Source of the DNA: a virus
Taxonomy: Duplodnaviria; Caudoviricetes
IMG/VR virus record: IMGVR_UViG_3300021373_002388
Span: 1-54,125 of that record
DNA length: 54,125 nucleotides
Reading direction: 5' to 3' (one strand)
A program made the translations under genes and the position numbers. The notes under the pieces were generated by a model. It ran no database searches, was not told where the DNA came from, and worked only from the letters and a program-made list of their open reading frames with translations. Position 1 is the stretch's first letter. The number at the start of each line of letters is the position of its first letter. Positions 46,596 through 51,255 of this stretch are shown in pieces.

Positions 46596-46862
46596 ATGAA
46601 AAAGTTTTATGTATCAGGTATCCCCCAGAAGAGAGGAAGACATAGAATAAAGTCTATAGAACCTATAGGACGATACGAAGACGAAATACTCAATACACAT
46701 ACAGTATACAGAGTATGGATAAACTGTGGTTATGTAGATTACTATAAGGGATGTGAACTGAAACTAAAAGACCATCAAGGTAAACCATGTACAGGGTATG
46801 AAGTAGATAGTACCATGAACTCATTACTAGAGGCATTAAAGATACTAGAAGAAGAGGATTAA
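46596..46862 (+). CDS. Hypothetical protein
   Basis: AAGGA RBS; last gene before the non-coding block. Confidence 0.55.
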   Translation: MKKFYVSGIPQKRGRHRIKSIEPIGRYEDEILNTHTVYRVWINCGYVDYYKGCELKLKDHQGKPCTGYEVDSTMNSLLEALKILEEED

Positions 46863-47096
46863 GTGTCCCTGAGAAACACTGAGCGAAGCCCTCTCAAGCC
46901 CTCTCCGTAAAACCTACCAGTAAATAATACTGTACCATTCGAGACCCACCAGTAAAATCAACTGGAACCACTGGGTAAAACAGTAAGATTTACTGCTTAA
47001 ACTTTAGTTGAATTATGTGAAAAGCTTCTGGGAAAAACGTATAGACCTTATCTGGCTCATTATTTGTTTTACTCAGAAACACTCCAATTCTTTCTC

Positions 47097-47125
47097 ATTA
47101 TACTCTATTTTTTCCTAAAAGTCAA
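47097..47125 (-). promoter_or_regulatory. sigma70 promoter (minus)
   Basis: TTGACT-N17-TATAAT. Confidence 0.75.
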
Positions 47126-47170
47126 TGAAAAACCTCCAAAAACTCTCAGAAAAAACCGAAGTGTAAAAAC

Positions 47171-47199
47171 TTGACATTTGAATCAAAATTTGGTAAAAT
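47171..47199 (+). promoter_or_regulatory. sigma70 promoter
   Basis: TTGACA-N17-TAAAAT. Confidence 0.75.
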
Positions 47200-47248
47200 G
47201 TAAGGTTTTTGAGAGTTTTACTTGGAGAATCTCTGAGTAAAACCTTCC

Positions 47249-47277
47249 AGTATATCACAGTAAAATTTGCTTGTCAA
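47249..47277 (-). promoter_or_regulatory. sigma70 promoter (minus)
   Basis: TTGACA-N17-TATACT. Confidence 0.75.
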
Positions 47278-47280
47278 GTC

Positions 47281-47310
47281 TTGACATTTAGTAAGTTTTA
47301 CTGGTATACT
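47281..47310 (+). promoter_or_regulatory. sigma70 promoter
   Basis: TTGACA-N18-TATACT; back-to-back with the minus promoter via TGTCAAGTCTTGACA palindrome. Confidence 0.7.
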
Positions 47311-47359
47311 GGGAGTAGCGACTTGAGAAAACGTGGAGAATCTCTGAGTAAAACCTTCC

Positions 47360-47388
47360 AGTATACTATAGAAAAACCTTTTTGTCAA
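47360..47388 (-). promoter_or_regulatory. sigma70 promoter (minus)
   Basis: TTGACA-N17-TATACT. Confidence 0.75.
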
Positions 47389-47411
47389 GAGAAACTTTAA
47401 GAAAAAAATGC

Positions 47412-47440
47412 TTGACATTGGGGTTGTCTTTTAGTACTAT
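47412..47440 (+). promoter_or_regulatory. sigma70 promoter
   Basis: TTGACA-N17-TACTAT. Confidence 0.75.
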
Positions 47441-47446
47441 AATCTG

Positions 47447-47475
47447 GCGGGAACGGAGACACCGGAGTACAAGAC
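47447..47475 (+). repeat. GCGGGAAC..ACCGG motif copy A (candidate small RNA 5' end)
   Basis: GCGGGAAC-GGAGAC-ACCGGAGTACAAGAC, 6 nt after a -10 box. Confidence 0.8.
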
Positions 47476-47527
47476 ACGGTGCTCGCCTAGAAAAAACATG
47501 GCATCCATATGTCAGGCAGGGTTCATC

Positions 47528-47555
47528 CTTGGACTCCGGTCTCTAATGTTCCCGC
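47528..47555 (-). repeat. GCGGGAAC..ACCGG motif copy B
   Basis: GCGGGAAC-ATTAGAG-ACCGGAGTCCAAG on minus strand, 6 nt after a -10 box. Confidence 0.8.
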
Positions 47556-47561
47556 ATTATT

Positions 47562-47590
47562 AAGATACTATATGCAAGCCTTTTTGTCAA
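47562..47590 (-). promoter_or_regulatory. sigma70 promoter (minus)
   Basis: TTGACA-N17-TATCTT. Confidence 0.65.
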
Positions 47591-47593
47591 GTG

Positions 47594-47734
47594 TTTTGCA
47601 ACCTTATTTGCAACTAATATGCGAGTTTTATTTGCAACCTTTTTGCAGATTTTATTTGCAACCTTTTTGCAGATTTTATTTGCAAGTCAGATGCAGATTT
47701 TATTTGCAACCTTTTTGCAGATTTTATTTGCAGA
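47594..47734. repeat. 24-bp tandem repeat TTTTATTTGCAACCTTTTTGCAGA
   Basis: Exact units at 47626, 47650 and 47698; variant at 47674; degenerate/partial units at both ends. Confidence 0.92.
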
Positions 47735-47990
47735 TCATTCGAGGGTCGAGATGCAAAAACTTGGGTGTACCGGGCGAAACTGGGTGGGCCACAAGGGGGT
47801 AGCCTAGGAGACATACAGAGAAAAATCGGCAAAAACATCTGAGAAAAATTCGCAAAAAAACTGGGAGAACCCGGCGAAAAACTCAGCGGAGCCTCTGGGG
47901 AACTCGCGAAAAAAAGTCCAAGGCAATCGCGGGAAAAAAACGCATTGAACCGAAATCTGGGAGCACGTATGAGCTTACGGAAAAAACTGC

Positions 47991-48019
47991 TTGACACAAA
48001 GGGTCAAATATGGTACGAT
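47991..48019 (+). promoter_or_regulatory. sigma70 promoter
   Basis: TTGACA-N17-TACGAT. Confidence 0.7.
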
Positions 48020-48074
48020 GTATGGGGTCTAGGTAAAATGGGAGTCATTACGTAAATGACGCCCACACTCCCCC

Positions 48075-48102
48075 CTTGGACTCCGGTTTCCTAAGTTCCC
48101 GC
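48075..48102 (-). repeat. GCGGGAAC..ACCGG motif copy C
   Basis: GCGGGAAC-TTAGGAA-ACCGGAGTCCAAG on minus strand. Confidence 0.8.
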
Positions 48103-48131
48103 TCGGTGTGTATCTCTTTATGTTGTAACCC

Positions 48132-48159
48132 ATTATAATGATCTAAACCGAAATTGCAA
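48132..48159 (-). promoter_or_regulatory. sigma70 promoter (minus)
   Basis: TTGCAA-N16-TATAAT with upstream A-tracts. Confidence 0.65.
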
Positions 48160-48192
48160 GCTTTTTTTTAACTTTTTTTAACTTTTTTTCTA

Positions 48193-48222
48193 TTGACTTT
48201 CAGGTTTTTTTCGTGTTATAAT
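48193..48222 (+). promoter_or_regulatory. sigma70 promoter
   Basis: TTGACT-N18-TATAAT with extended -10 TG. Confidence 0.7.
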
Positions 48223-48268
48223 AAAGTAGCGTCTTGACGCCGGGGAAAAACACTCGGGCACCCTCCCC

Positions 48269-48298
48269 GTTTTGTACCCCGGTTTCCTAAGTTCCCGC
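48269..48298 (-). repeat. GCGGGAAC..ACCGG motif copy D
   Basis: GCGGGAAC-TTAGGAA-ACCGGGGTACAAAAC on minus strand. Confidence 0.8.
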
Positions 48299-48324
48299 AC
48301 GATTTCCCCTATGTCTTGAAAATC

Positions 48325-48352
48325 ATTATAATGATCTAGAAAAAAATTGCAA
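48325..48352 (-). promoter_or_regulatory. sigma70 promoter (minus)
   Basis: TTGCAA-N16-TATAAT. Confidence 0.65.
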
Positions 48353-48361
48353 GCATTATTT

Positions 48362-48381
48362 TACTGTTATTTTATACAGTA
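48362..48381. promoter_or_regulatory. LexA (SOS) box
   Basis: TACTGTTATTTTATACAGTA matches TACTGT-N8-ACAGTA. Confidence 0.7.
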
Positions 48382-48411
48382 GAAAATTTTTCTGTAGAAG
48401 AGTAAAAAAGC

Positions 48412-48440
48412 TTGACATGGTTCTTTTATTTCCCTATAGT
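48412..48440 (+). promoter_or_regulatory. sigma70 early promoter
   Basis: TTGACA-N17-TATAGT then AACAACACGAGG leader. Confidence 0.8.
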
Positions 48441-48469
48441 AGAACCATAAAACAACACGAGGTAACACT

Positions 48470-49303
48470 ATGAAACGCCAACAAGCCAAACAAATCACGA
48501 AAGCAGTATCAGAGAGAGACTATAGCAAGGTTATTTCCCTGATTGATATCGCACTAGCTACCGGGGAAGAAGGGCCTAGTTGGGTCCGCGATCTTACTAA
48601 GATCAAGGAATTTATTCAAGACGGAAAGCCCCGGTTTTCTATATTTGCCAAAGATGGAAACGGTAAGCTTCCATTCTTGGCGTTTTCCAGCATACCCGGC
48701 GAAGGTTTTTGTGGTGGTGCTGGTGAATGCCTGAATTTCTGTTATAGCTTTCGAGCATGGCGATACCCTGCAGCATTTTGTCGACAAGTACAGAATTCAA
48801 TCCTGTTACAGTCTAAATCCGGGCAAGATTCTATCTTGGCTGCGCTGGATAAGTTTAAGACAGATTCAATTGATTTCCGACTATATGTTGACGGGGATTT
48901 TACTGGGATTGAGGATATAGAATTCTGGTTTTCTGCTTTGATTGCCCGACCATGGTTAAAAACTTATGGTTATAGTAAATCATGGCAATCCCTGCTTGAT
49001 TACTCTGGGGAATACCCGGAAAACTACCAACTAAACCTTTCTAGCGGTTCAATATACGGGGACGATATAAAAGCCCGCGTATCTCAATTGCCTATTACTA
49101 GGGGTGAGTTTATAGCCGTTTCAGTAGGCCACAAGGTAAAATCCAGCGACCATGGGAACCGGGACCACCAAAAACTTCTGCGGGAAGTCTACGGGAAAAA
49201 AGCTTTTACTTGTCCGGGGCTCTGTGGTGATTGTACCAATAAGGGGCATGCATGTGGCTCTGATCGATTCAAGGGGCTAGATATCATTATAGCGGTTCAC
49301 TAA
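48470..49303 (+). CDS. Phage gp88-like protein (radical-SAM-like Cys motif)
   Basis: GNGKL..FS.IPG..CGGAGECLNFCY, FRLYVDGDF, YGYSK, C-terminal CPG.CGDC...HAC. Confidence 0.65.
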   Translation: MKRQQAKQITKAVSERDYSKVISLIDIALATGEEGPSWVRDLTKIKEFIQDGKPRFSIFAKDGNGKLPFLAFSSIPGEGFCGGAGECLNFCYSFRAWRYPAAFCRQVQNSILLQSKSGQDSILAALDKFKTDSIDFRLYVDGDFTGIEDIEFWFSALIARPWLKTYGYSKSWQSLLDYSGEYPENYQLNLSSGSIYGDDIKARVSQLPITRGEFIAVSVGHKVKSSDHGNRDHQKLLREVYGKKAFTCPGLCGDCTNKGHACGSDRFKGLDIIIAVH

Positions 49304-49318
49304 AAAGGGGGGATTGTC

Positions 49319-49345
49319 AAGGGGCTCTATATGGGCCCCTTTTTT
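49319..49345 (+). terminator. Intrinsic terminator
   Basis: AAGGGGCTC-TATAT-GGGCCCCTT plus T run. Confidence 0.8.
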
Positions 49346-49362
49346 GACCCTGAAAAAAAAAT

Positions 49363-49391
49363 TTGACTTTTAGTTTTTTTCGTGTTATAAT
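49363..49391 (+). promoter_or_regulatory. sigma70 promoter
   Basis: TTGACT-N17-TATAAT; paralog of the 48193 promoter. Confidence 0.75.
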
Positions 49392-49436
49392 GAAAGTAGC
49401 GACCTTTCGCCCCAGCTTCAATCGCCCACTCTCCCC

Positions 49437-49464
49437 GTCTTGTACTCCGGTTTCGTGTTCCCGC
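49437..49464 (-). repeat. GCGGGAAC..ACCGG motif copy E
   Basis: GCGGGAAC-ACGAA-ACCGGAGTACAAGAC on minus strand. Confidence 0.8.
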
Positions 49465-49487
49465 TCGTTTCCTCTATGTTGTAACCC

Positions 49488-49515
49488 ATTATAATGATCT
49501 AGAAAAAAATTGCAA
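49488..49515 (-). promoter_or_regulatory. sigma70 promoter (minus)
   Basis: TTGCAA-N16-TATAAT, same sequence as the 48325 promoter. Confidence 0.65.
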
Positions 49516-49524
49516 GCATTATTT

Positions 49525-49544
49525 TACTGTTTTTTTATACAGTA
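49525..49544. promoter_or_regulatory. LexA (SOS) box
   Basis: TACTGTTTTTTTATACAGTA directly abutting a -35 box. Confidence 0.7.
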
Positions 49545-49572
49545 TTGACTTTTCCTGAGATATCCCTATAAT
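49545..49572 (+). promoter_or_regulatory. sigma70 early promoter
   Basis: TTGACT-N16-TATAAT. Confidence 0.75.
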
Positions 49573-49607
49573 GGTTTCAACATCAACAAAACGAGGGAAC
49601 AACAGAG

Positions 49608-49808
49608 ATGGATAAAATCGATCACGAAGCAATCACCATAGCCATTTTAGATGAGCATATCGCTCTTTTGAAACAAGCTTTTAAAGAAGCTGGGGGTGAG
49701 TTTCCCACGTTTAGCCCTGACCCTGTAAAGGAGCGTAGAAAGGTTTTGAAGCTTATCCGGGCAATGAAGCGAACTAGAGCGTGGTTTGTTTCCCCAGAGG
49801 AAGCCTAG
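49608..49808 (+). CDS. Hypothetical early protein
   Basis: Own promoter and ACGAGG leader. Confidence 0.6.
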   Translation: MDKIDHEAITIAILDEHIALLKQAFKEAGGEFPTFSPDPVKERRKVLKLIRAMKRTRAWFVSPEEA

Positions 49809-49857
49809 TACACAGATAAAAAACCCTATCGAATCCGTGAAATTTCTTAAAAACCCC

Positions 49858-49885
49858 TTGACAAAATCTAGAAATAGGGTATTAT
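49858..49885 (+). promoter_or_regulatory. sigma70 early promoter
   Basis: TTGACA-N16-TATTAT. Confidence 0.7.
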
Positions 49886-49920
49886 TAAGACACTACCAAC
49901 AACCAACGAGGAACAACAAC

Positions 49921-50292
49921 ATGGCTTACATGAACCAAGAAACAAAGAAGAAACTGGCTCCCGGTATCAAAGCCGTTCTAGCTGAATACGGTATGAAGGG
50001 AACCTTGTCTGTTCGAAACCACATGGTCCTAGAAGTTAACATTAGGAAAGGGGCTCTAGACGTTGCTCAAGACGTAAAAGAGTCCCATGGTCGGGATTAC
50101 TTCCAAGTCAACCCTTACTGGTTTGACGAGCATTACACGGGTAAGACAAGGGAGTTTCTGGGTAAGCTTATGGCCGCAATCAAGGGCGATCAGTGGTACG
50201 ATAACAGTGACGCTATGACCGACTATTTCGACACTGCTTATTACTTCGATATCAATATCGGGGAATATGGAAGACCCTACGAAAAAATTTAA
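49921..50292 (+). CDS. Hypothetical early protein (LPD29-like motif)
   Basis: GAGG RBS; LSVRNH, YDNSDAMTDYFD. Confidence 0.65.
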   Translation: MAYMNQETKKKLAPGIKAVLAEYGMKGTLSVRNHMVLEVNIRKGALDVAQDVKESHGRDYFQVNPYWFDEHYTGKTREFLGKLMAAIKGDQWYDNSDAMTDYFDTAYYFDINIGEYGRPYEKI

Positions 50293-50311
50293 ATTAATTG
50301 CTCTAGGGGTA

Positions 50312-50340
50312 TTGACAAGGGGCTATAGGTTCGATACTAT
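50312..50340 (+). promoter_or_regulatory. sigma70 early promoter embedded in inverted repeat
   Basis: TTGACA-N17-TACTAT. Confidence 0.75.
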
Positions 50341-50372
50341 AGCTCCAACATCAACGAAACGAGGAAAACAAA

Positions 50373-50666
50373 ATGAACTCAGCGAAAAATCTTTTAGACT
50401 ACGCTCGAAAGCAAGGTTACAAAGTAGCCGTAACATGTGCCAGTGAGGGGGACGTATTACAAAAGTCTACCACTAGCTGGCCCAAGATCAAGGAAGCTAT
50501 CGAATCAACTGGATACGTTCACATGGTAGTCCGGGACACTATAAACAAAATCTCAGTTGCCACGGCACTGGTAATCGATCACGACGATACTGAGGAATGG
50601 GTTAGTGATTACGGGGTCAACGCTTTTATGGATGGATGGGAAAAACAAGTTTACGCACGGAATTAA
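50373..50666 (+). CDS. Hypothetical early protein
   Basis: ACGAGG RBS; EEWVSDY. Confidence 0.65.
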   Translation: MNSAKNLLDYARKQGYKVAVTCASEGDVLQKSTTSWPKIKEAIESTGYVHMVVRDTINKISVATALVIDHDDTEEWVSDYGVNAFMDGWEKQVYARN

Positions 50667-50683
50667 GTTGTTGTTGGTGCTTT

Positions 50684-50711
50684 GGGGGGTCTATATGGCC
50701 CCCTTTTTTTT
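50684..50711 (+). terminator. Intrinsic terminator
   Basis: GGGGGTC-TATAT-GGCCCCC plus T8; same design as the 49319 terminator. Confidence 0.8.
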
Positions 50712-50746
50712 GGATTCCAACCACGTAAAAGACACGCAGGGGTGGT

Positions 50747-50774
50747 GTTTTGTACTCCGGTTTCGTGTTCCCGC
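50747..50774 (-). repeat. GCGGGAAC..ACCGG motif copy F
   Basis: GCGGGAAC-ACGAA-ACCGGAGTACAAAAC on minus strand. Confidence 0.8.
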
Positions 50775-50785
50775 TTTATGGTTTA

Positions 50786-50813
50786 ACTATACCAAACTCA
50801 CAAGAAAAGTCAA
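50786..50813 (-). promoter_or_regulatory. sigma70 promoter (minus)
   Basis: TTGACT-N16-TATAGT. Confidence 0.7.
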
Positions 50814-50846
50814 GGGTTTTTTCTGAAAAAAACTTAAAAAAAACTA

Positions 50847-50874
50847 TTGACTTTTCCTTTTATCTGGGTATACT
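50847..50874 (+). promoter_or_regulatory. sigma70 early promoter
   Basis: TTGACT-N16-TATACT. Confidence 0.7.
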
Positions 50875-50881
50875 ACTAATC

Positions 50882-51009
50882 ATAGAGTGATCGGATGGGA
50901 CGGGTAAATATCCGACTTGATGAAGGTGTTCCCCGCCTGACGCTACCCCGTAAAGGTAGGCCCTGAAGTGAACCGAGTGATCTTCGGAGAGCTTTAGGGG
51001 TCACTCTAT
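50882..51009 (+). ncRNA. Candidate structured RNA (about 128 nt) at transcript start
   Basis: Closing stem ATAGAGTGA/TCACTCTAT; inner stems TCGGAT/ATCCGA, CTACC/GGTAG, CCCTGAAG/CTTTAGGG, CCGA/TCGG. Confidence 0.6.
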
Positions 51010-51039
51010 AACACCAACTTACAACGAGAGGATTATATT

Positions 51040-51255
51040 ATGAGAGAATTTTTTACCCGTAGACCTTTAGACAATGCCCCCATCGTAGTCAAAGAGGGTG
51101 TTGAGGGATTTTTCCCGATGCAGGATAAGACTGTTTCAGACGCTACTCTGAAGGCTTTGAATGAGGCCCACGGTAACACAGAGAAAGACGTTCTACACGC
51201 TGTTTCCTGCTCTATGTTTGGTTGGGATATCCCGGCTGCTGATTTGATTTCATAA
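51040..51255 (+). CDS. Hypothetical early protein
   Basis: GAGG RBS; SMFGWD.PAA motif. Confidence 0.65.
   Translation: MREFFTRRPLDNAPIVVKEGVEGFFPMQDKTVSDATLKALNEAHGNTEKDVLHAVSCSMFGWDIPAADLIS

Follow-up and report, generated by a model that had tools for sequence, protein, structure and literature searches.

A conserved bipartite motif behind promoters of large phages, a possible leader of transcripts that read into origin-like repeats

Why should a phage whose genes lie almost wholly on one strand carry strong promoter-like sites that face the other way and lead into no gene? The question is raised by a 54,125-base virus record (IMG/VR IMGVR_UViG_3300021373_002388, Caudoviricetes; CheckV completeness 33%), referred to here at its full length as the window, in which the + strand holds 42 of the 44 open reading frames (ORFs) of at least 150 amino acids. 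An original prediction, made from the letters of the sequence, had pointed to six copies of a bipartite motif between 47,447 and 50,813, each behind a promoter of its own, and had taken them for small RNAs with a constant handle and a variable tail, or else for guide-like RNAs or a DNA operator. Here we report that the six copies probably belong to a family of non-coding RNA leaders, uncatalogued so far, that lie close behind promoters and are widespread among large gammaproteobacterial phages. To the reading that the motif is the leader of a non-coding transcript that would run into a replication origin we give a probability of roughly 0.4.

The pattern GCGGGAAC-N5-7-ACCGGRGTMCAA has exactly six matches in the window, at 47447–47472 on the + strand (copy A) and at 47529–47555, 48076–48102, 48272–48298, 49440–49464 and 50750–50774 on the − strand (copies B–F), and none in 100 dinucleotide-preserving shuffles. 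The whole record has no copy beyond these: a covariance model of the family (68 members, filters off) recovers the six alone, with E from 1e-21 to 7e-16, and its next hit (E = 0.26) does not fall at 47897–47923, where a degenerate seventh copy had been proposed. As predicted, every copy has a sigma70-like site upstream on its own strand, matching 10–11 of 12 consensus positions. The −10 hexamers stand 6, 6, 29, 26, 23 and 11 nucleotides (nt) before copies A–F, so that A and B would begin at about the expected +1. The leaders of C–E resemble those of early genes (repeat family D7) and, again as had been noticed, no ATG follows them. Five of the six copies lie on the strand opposite to the window's genes, and the 3′ tails differ among the copies. 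Short ORFs overlap the motif copies in the window; since the linker lengths of 77 family members (6, 7, 5, 8 and 4 nt in 48, 14, 7, 5 and 3 of them) follow no three-base pattern, the motif is unlikely to be coding. The units and the repeats around them are laid out as follows.

47412–47472, + strand: unit A, with promoter 47412–47440 and copy A at 47447–47472 (E 7e-16), reading rightward, the iterons 132 nt off.
47491–47590, − strand: unit B, with promoter 47590–47562, copy B at 47555–47529, and a short hairpin with a run of six U at about 47511–47491.
47604–47732: iteron-like array of 5.4 copies of the 24-nt unit TTATTTGCAACCTTTTTGCAGATT (family D1).
47818–47869: A-rich 23-nt repeat in 2.2 copies, between the iterons and unit C.
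47991–48159, − strand: unit C, with promoter 48159–48132, a 29-nt leader, copy C at 48102–48076 and a long 3′ hairpin.
47991–48019, + strand: promoter-like site convergent to unit C.
48193–48352, − strand: unit D, with promoter 48352–48325, copy D at 48298–48272 and a terminator-like hairpin at 48241–48228.
48193–48222, + strand: promoter-like site convergent to unit D.
49363–49515, − strand: unit E, with promoter 49515–49488, copy E at 49464–49440 and a terminator-like hairpin at 49411–49398.
49363–49391, + strand: promoter-like site convergent to unit E.
50750–50813, − strand: unit F, with promoter 50813–50786 and copy F at 50774–50750.

Copies A, C, D, E and F are oriented towards the iteron block and B away from it. 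Copies A and B are transcribed towards one another, a convergent + promoter-like site lies about 100 nt from each of C, D and E, and F has no such facing site; the convergent sites opposite A/B, C, D and E, which are consensus matches only, agree with the consensus at 10–11 of 12 positions. Unit B would yield an RNA of about 64 nt whose fold ends in a 3′ hairpin and the run UUUUUU; transcribed towards unit A, this RNA is complementary to it. Unit F reads into the terminator hairpin (50684–50704) of the + strand gene upstream.

Promoter-like sites are dense in this region as a whole, a consensus scan of 46800–51200 giving 24 of them against 8.1 ± 2.8 in shuffles. In a window whose genes are almost all on the + strand, 11 minus-strand sites lie between 47.1 and 50.9 kb, the A–F set included. 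Two convergent pairs without the bipartite motif, 47171+/47277− and 47281+/47388−, occupy 47171–47388 and flank a repeated segment of about 59 nt (family D5). Three + sites, those opposite D and E and that of 47281–47310, lead into a near-constant start, AGTAGCG(A/T)C (+ strand, at 48228, 49398 and 47314), which a relative of the window, contig L123, retains opposite its own motif copies; the counter-transcripts of the window may have a constant 5′ end of their own.

How far does the motif extend beyond this record? Both boxes recur behind promoters in Mydovirus, for example in Klebsiella phage KNP2, where the copy sits within an 857-nt gene-free gap, and also in a 262-kb phage lineage, in complete records of 147 kb and 95 kb, and in many metagenomic contigs. 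BLAST searches together with the model identified a variant of the motif in Otagovirus records, including Pseudomonas phage PPSC2, the motif in Vibrio phage 1.101.O, a diverged second copy in KNP2, and weak relatives in PAK_P1 and rV5. The family set, enlarged by a metagenome scan, comprises 74 non-redundant members after GC-rich coding hits and near-duplicates were discarded; the conservation of the boxes is partly imposed by the search patterns, and the covariance model was applied to the sequences of the collected records. A looser pattern run over viral contigs gave nearly all chance matches in GC-rich coding DNA and was set aside, L090 being its sole new member. Each of five further phage records searched in full has a single copy by pattern, and multiplied copies occur only in the window's lineage, in which the 3.7-kb contig L123 has four. 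The model finds no copy in T4 or PAK_P3, and its best hit in ICP1, at 48.8 kb, has merely E = 0.14. Ribonucleotide reductase is the sole protein that the window has in common with both of two complete carriers (G002 and G004); on the records compared, the motif is common to phages otherwise unrelated.

In bacteria the picture is one of chance. A scan of 185,579 prokaryote species, each represented by one genome, yielded 25 single hits, all in GC-rich coding-like DNA without a promoter, where a rough estimate of the chance expectation is about 20–40, and a bacterial chromosomal counterpart was dropped because all 25 look like chance. Neither strand of the E. coli K-12 chromosome contains box 2 in exact form. 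The handle of a solitary CRISPR repeat or guide-like RNA would be expected to match a repeat in a CRISPR array of the host or some other host locus, and the guide-like reading of the original prediction finds no support here. The element also appears to be uncatalogued. Rfam 15 covariance models gave no match in the window at gathering score (RF03044, Proteo-phage-1, included), just three unrelated matches with E of at least 1.2 at 47000–51100, and a single unrelated match (E = 0.84) on the loci of eight relatives. The model building and the searches of related phages and Rfam that had been proposed thus place the motif in other phages and in no Rfam 15 family. A literature text search with four forms of the box 2 12-mer returned nothing on the motif, and titles and opening lines of abstracts on phage origins, PeSLs (early-promoter/stem-loop cassettes), phage small RNAs and put do not mention it. 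The small RNAs of phage PAK_P3, as summarised in PMC4933390, were ruled out as this element, the model finding nothing in PAK_P3.

The family is also characterised by what surrounds the motif. Among the 68 members with enough flanking sequence, a same-strand promoter-like site lies within 80 nt upstream in 46, against 3 with one on the opposite strand, and the distance from −10 hexamer to motif is 6–49 nt. In the 54 members with 450 nt on both sides, a 10-mer occurring at least three times within 450 nt is found downstream in 24 and upstream in one, the single upstream case being copy B of the window, which is oriented away from the repeats. DnaA boxes (at most one mismatch) average 1.28 downstream and 0.13 upstream of these members; at least five lie downstream at 9 of the 54 loci, and more than one upstream at none. 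At these loci at least three direct repeats or clustered DnaA boxes, as in iteron or DnaA-box origins, adjoin the element. The downstream sequence is repetitive throughout and differs by lineage: the 95-kb phage has five 63-nt tandem repeats, the 147-kb phage repeats of 'ctatcgagac', KNP2 three modules of roughly 75 nt and the window its array of 5.4 × 24 nt, and in the 262-kb lineage two dif-like sites precede nine or ten DnaA boxes. As a rule there is one copy of the element, directed into iterons or DnaA boxes, a setting that was invisible to the original prediction. Terminator-like sites are scarce, with one within 170 nt downstream in 5 of the 68 members and one on the other strand of the same stretch in 11.

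In six members of the 262-kb lineage the dif-like sites follow the motif at 54–193 nt, and their position between the motif and the array of 9–10 DnaA boxes suggests plasmid-like maintenance or Xer-dependent resolution. Matches to the dif-like pattern are those in L124 (4638–4662), L139, L156, L205, L222 and L009, along with L008, L018 and L250, where they are about 10–11 kb from the motif. The pattern, built from these loci, has a single hit in E. coli K-12, adjoining hipA, at the place of dif, for which the record carries no annotation. At three other loci, L271 (Pseudomonas phage PAK_P1, about 55.6 kb), L240 and L241, the sequence TTGGCAC-N5-TTGC stands about 10–20 nt past the motif tail, presumably in the shape of a sigma54 promoter.

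Does the element act as RNA or as DNA? The family core consists of box 1 (GCGGGAAC), a purine-rich linker, box 2 (ACCGGAGUNCAA) and a semi-conserved tail, RAC-N8-GUGCCUGUCAUUC. In an Otagovirus-type clade the linker grows to 18–25 nt and holds a small hairpin, which occurs with four stems (GCC/GGC, CGC/GCG, GCGC/GCGU and AGCC/GGCU) and loops mostly of GNRA type. The same clade has box 1 as GCAGGAAC together with box 2 as ACUGGAGU in all five distinct true members. Box 1 GCAGG was found only with box 2 ACUGG (5/5 true members, one further hit being a chance match in coding DNA) and with ACC in no true member; pattern searches for GCGGG with ACU and for GCGAG gave no hits, and that for GUGGG one chance hit. 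This linked G:C to A:U double change supports pairing between position 3 of each box, and the sole helix in the RNAalifold consensus is a CGG/CCG stem of 3 base pairs (bp) between box 1 and box 2, formable in all 74 members. The range of linker lengths from 4 to 25 nt, the covarying inserted hairpin and the paired change together make a double-stranded DNA operator, one of the suggestions of the original prediction, unlikely, and action as RNA or at the single-strand level is supported by these comparisons. The sense strand has more G than C in 62 of the 74 members.

Pairings beyond the 3-bp stem are less uniform. Thermodynamic folding pairs box 2 with the tail in 43 of the 74 members. Two members of the Otagovirus-type clade have CAG in the tail where others have CGG, which would fit a competition of box 1 and tail for box 2, an idea weakened by the CAG tail of three canonical members (L126, L191 and L205). 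Two long-range helices were considered. That of box 1 with tail CCUGU has 71% canonical pairs and is complete in 23/74 members; that of box 2 GGAGU with tail AUUCN has 69% canonical pairs and is complete in 21/74. Both exceed shifted controls (33–57%) yet are confined to some lineages, and they were rejected as family-wide features. The phage rV5 locus (L263, 108174–108206, − strand) keeps the promoter and the tail strand GGUGCCUGUC and lacks the two boxes; its 5′ strand is changed to GGCAGGCACC, in perfect 10-bp pairing with the tail strand. This locus represents a diverged form of the element, and its compensated 5′ strand indicates that the long-range helix may exist only in Vequintavirinae. 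A match to ribosomal RNA, by pairing or by mimicry, was also considered. Three blocks are complementary to E. coli 16S at 1379, 1389 and 1402, in the wrong order for a duplex; with about 16 matches of 6–7 nt expected, we estimate about 0.6 such clusters by chance, and this lead was dropped.

We suggest that the motif is the leader of a non-coding transcript that reads into an origin of replication, the tentative reading to which we gave a probability of about 0.4. Transcription by host RNA polymerase would extend into the repeats and would there activate the origin or supply a primer by way of an RNA:DNA hybrid, the handle acting at the level of the RNA or of the displaced strand of DNA. Since the handle hardly varies among phages without common replication proteins, its most likely partner is a conserved component of the host, although such a partner is entirely hypothetical. 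Alternatively, the handle may control its own folding, in which case the CGG of box 1 and a CGG in the tail would be alternative partners for the CCG of box 2. In the window's lineage the unit has been multiplied, five of the six copies being aimed at the iterons of 47604–47732, and the convergent sites at A/B, C, D and E would yield fully complementary counter-transcripts, much as in antisense copy control of the ColE1 type. A bolder version, which we consider unlikely, would make the handle a horizontally shared module of RNA (or of displaced single-stranded DNA) that recruits one conserved host factor to an RNA-started origin, a switch at box 2 deciding whether the transcript is retained on the DNA.

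Several observations weigh against a leader of an origin transcript. The loci are origin-like by their sequence context only; cumulative GC skew in two complete genomes merely tracks gene orientation and was set aside as uninformative on origins. T4, whose origins have been studied, has no copy of the motif, and ICP1, whose origin is mapped, has only the weak hit at 48.8 kb, with an early coverage peak near 60 kb according to the summary in PMC7145576. The helix between the boxes is just 3 bp and is favoured by thermodynamic folding in 12 of the 74 members, and the covariation of the boxes may be a single evolutionary event. G-richness is not universal, since the 20-nt tail has more G than C in 43 members and more C than G in 22. 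The distance to the iterons is 1.7 kb for copy E and 3.0 kb for copy F, and genes of the + strand intervene. Units B, D and E end in terminator-like structures, so that some of the units may be discrete small RNAs in this phage.

Trans-acting small RNAs, whose handle would titrate a host RNA-binding protein (CsrA/RsmA, Hfq, ProQ or another) or scaffold the variable tails, are a rival reading, that of the original prediction, which we find possible but doubtful. It would account for the GGA in both boxes of all 74 members, variant clade included, for the hairpins with U-rich tracts in which units B, D and E end, and for the variation of tails between the window copies, and an invariant handle across unrelated proteomes would fit a host protein partner. 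Yet the five other whole records have one copy each, with two GGA triplets per copy, whereas known CsrA sponges have many more. RNAs of the CsrB/RsmZ type present many GGA in the hairpin loops of a single molecule; here each unit has two invariant GGA, and folding presents them in loops inconsistently among members. Box 2 without an exact match on either K-12 strand also speaks against this reading, which moreover leaves the strong link with downstream repeats and DnaA boxes unexplained. From the original proposal of small RNAs with a constant handle and variable tail, a promoter-driven, non-coding, constant 5′ element survives; the units are mostly not bounded by terminators (5/68). A DNA-level site with merely incidental transcription strikes us as very improbable, whether as an operator, as a signal for packaging or injection, or as a place of single-strand initiation on displaced DNA; of these a site on the displaced single strand is conceivable, and a duplex-DNA operator is the least likely of the readings. 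The boxes are almost invariant with little demonstrable RNA structure, and the neighbourhood is rich in repeats of a protein-binding type, as such a site would have it, but the variable linker with its covarying hairpin is hard to square with a duplex-DNA site, the paired G:C to A:U change argues against one, and the orientation to the promoter is kept (46/68 against 3/68).

The 6–49 nt between promoter and motif, the few terminators downstream and the entry of non-coding transcripts into repeat arrays that are presumably protein-bound could also be explained by a leader acting in cis, which would modify host RNA polymerase or shield the untranslated transcript from Rho and so allow passage through bound repeats or terminators, in the manner of put or nut/boxA though outside those families. 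The put RNAs of HK022 lend this some plausibility, as they too are elements of nascent phage RNA close behind early promoters and need no protein factor; they are, however, about 70 nt long with two long stem-loops (summarised in PMC9378689). No such two-stem-loop fold is conserved here, where there is at most the one 3-bp helix of the RNAalifold consensus and an optional small hairpin. With no Rfam match, and with window units that face convergent promoters and have nothing coding beyond them, we rate this explanation as rather improbable.

If the motif does lead a transcript into an origin, several known systems offer partial likenesses. In ColE1 a host promoter drives primer RNA II at the origin, opposed by antisense RNA I. 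A promoter-driven non-coding RNA aimed at origin-like repeats would be comparable, as would the complementary counter-transcripts of about 100 nt that the convergent sites of the window would produce; unlike RNA I and RNA II, the element has no sequence or Rfam match to them and no conserved multi-stem fold. At T4 oriF and oriG the transcript from a promoter has been proposed to stay hybridised and to prime DNA synthesis. The promoter and the G-rich sense strand (62/74 members) are reminiscent of such R-loop origins, whereas T4 itself is without the motif and the sequence after the promoter is GC-rich and not easily unwound. As in iteron or DnaA-box origins of the lambda type, where transcription supports origin function (summarised in PMC3017604), arrays of repeats or DnaA boxes adjoin a promoter whose transcript would cross them, but here a near-invariant RNA motif is common to phages with wholly different repeats. 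The PeSLs of T4-like phages are repeated cassettes of early promoter and stem-loop that flank ORFs and are discussed as shuffling sites (summarised in PMC2839356, PMC4122927). Repeat families D2, D9 and D10 of the window are promoter/terminator cassettes of this kind; the bipartite motif, unlike them, is gene-less, runs counter to the genes in all copies but A and is also present in phages that are not T4-like.

The DNA polymerase of the window is 47% identical to T4-like cyanomyovirus enzymes, and a UvsX-like recombinase, a DnaB-like helicase, a primase and ribonucleotide reductase are encoded; a search of the window for transfer and transfer-messenger RNAs found none, and megablast against named phages found no close DNA relative. 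Between copies D and E, at 48470–49303 (+), lies a gene for a Cys-rich protein of 277 amino acids matching Pfam GP88 (PF17338, E 2e-12), without a PHROG match and without a homologue at other motif loci. A 123-amino-acid ORF at 49921–50292 (+) belongs to phrog_10415, of unknown function, and is 33% identical to a relative that KNP2 (L008) encodes about 3 kb away from its motif copy. This ORF is the only protein that links the window with other motif loci, besides one ORF common with the 262-kb lineage (L009), and a common neighbour protein was discarded as a candidate. The leader of ORF 51040–51255, at 50881–51010 (+), is predicted to form a three-way junction with a closing stem of about 12 bp (minimum free energy −50.1 kcal/mol, z = −2.24; 6 of 200 shuffles equally stable; no Rfam match) and could be a cis-regulatory RNA.

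The motif family accounts for the puzzling strong promoters that run opposite to the genes of the window. At the least, it is a new conserved RNA motif for catalogues of the Rfam type, with 74 members and three named phage genera or isolates. To our knowledge, the origins of most large virulent phages, among them rV5-like and Otagovirus-like phages and many marine myoviruses, are unmapped, and a short searchable motif that marks a candidate origin region across unrelated phages would open the question of their origins to direct test, and would indicate a host factor shared by phages with nothing else in common. If the bolder version is true, unrelated large phages of Gammaproteobacteria would share a common 'origin-licensing RNA' placed ahead of lineage-specific initiator sites.

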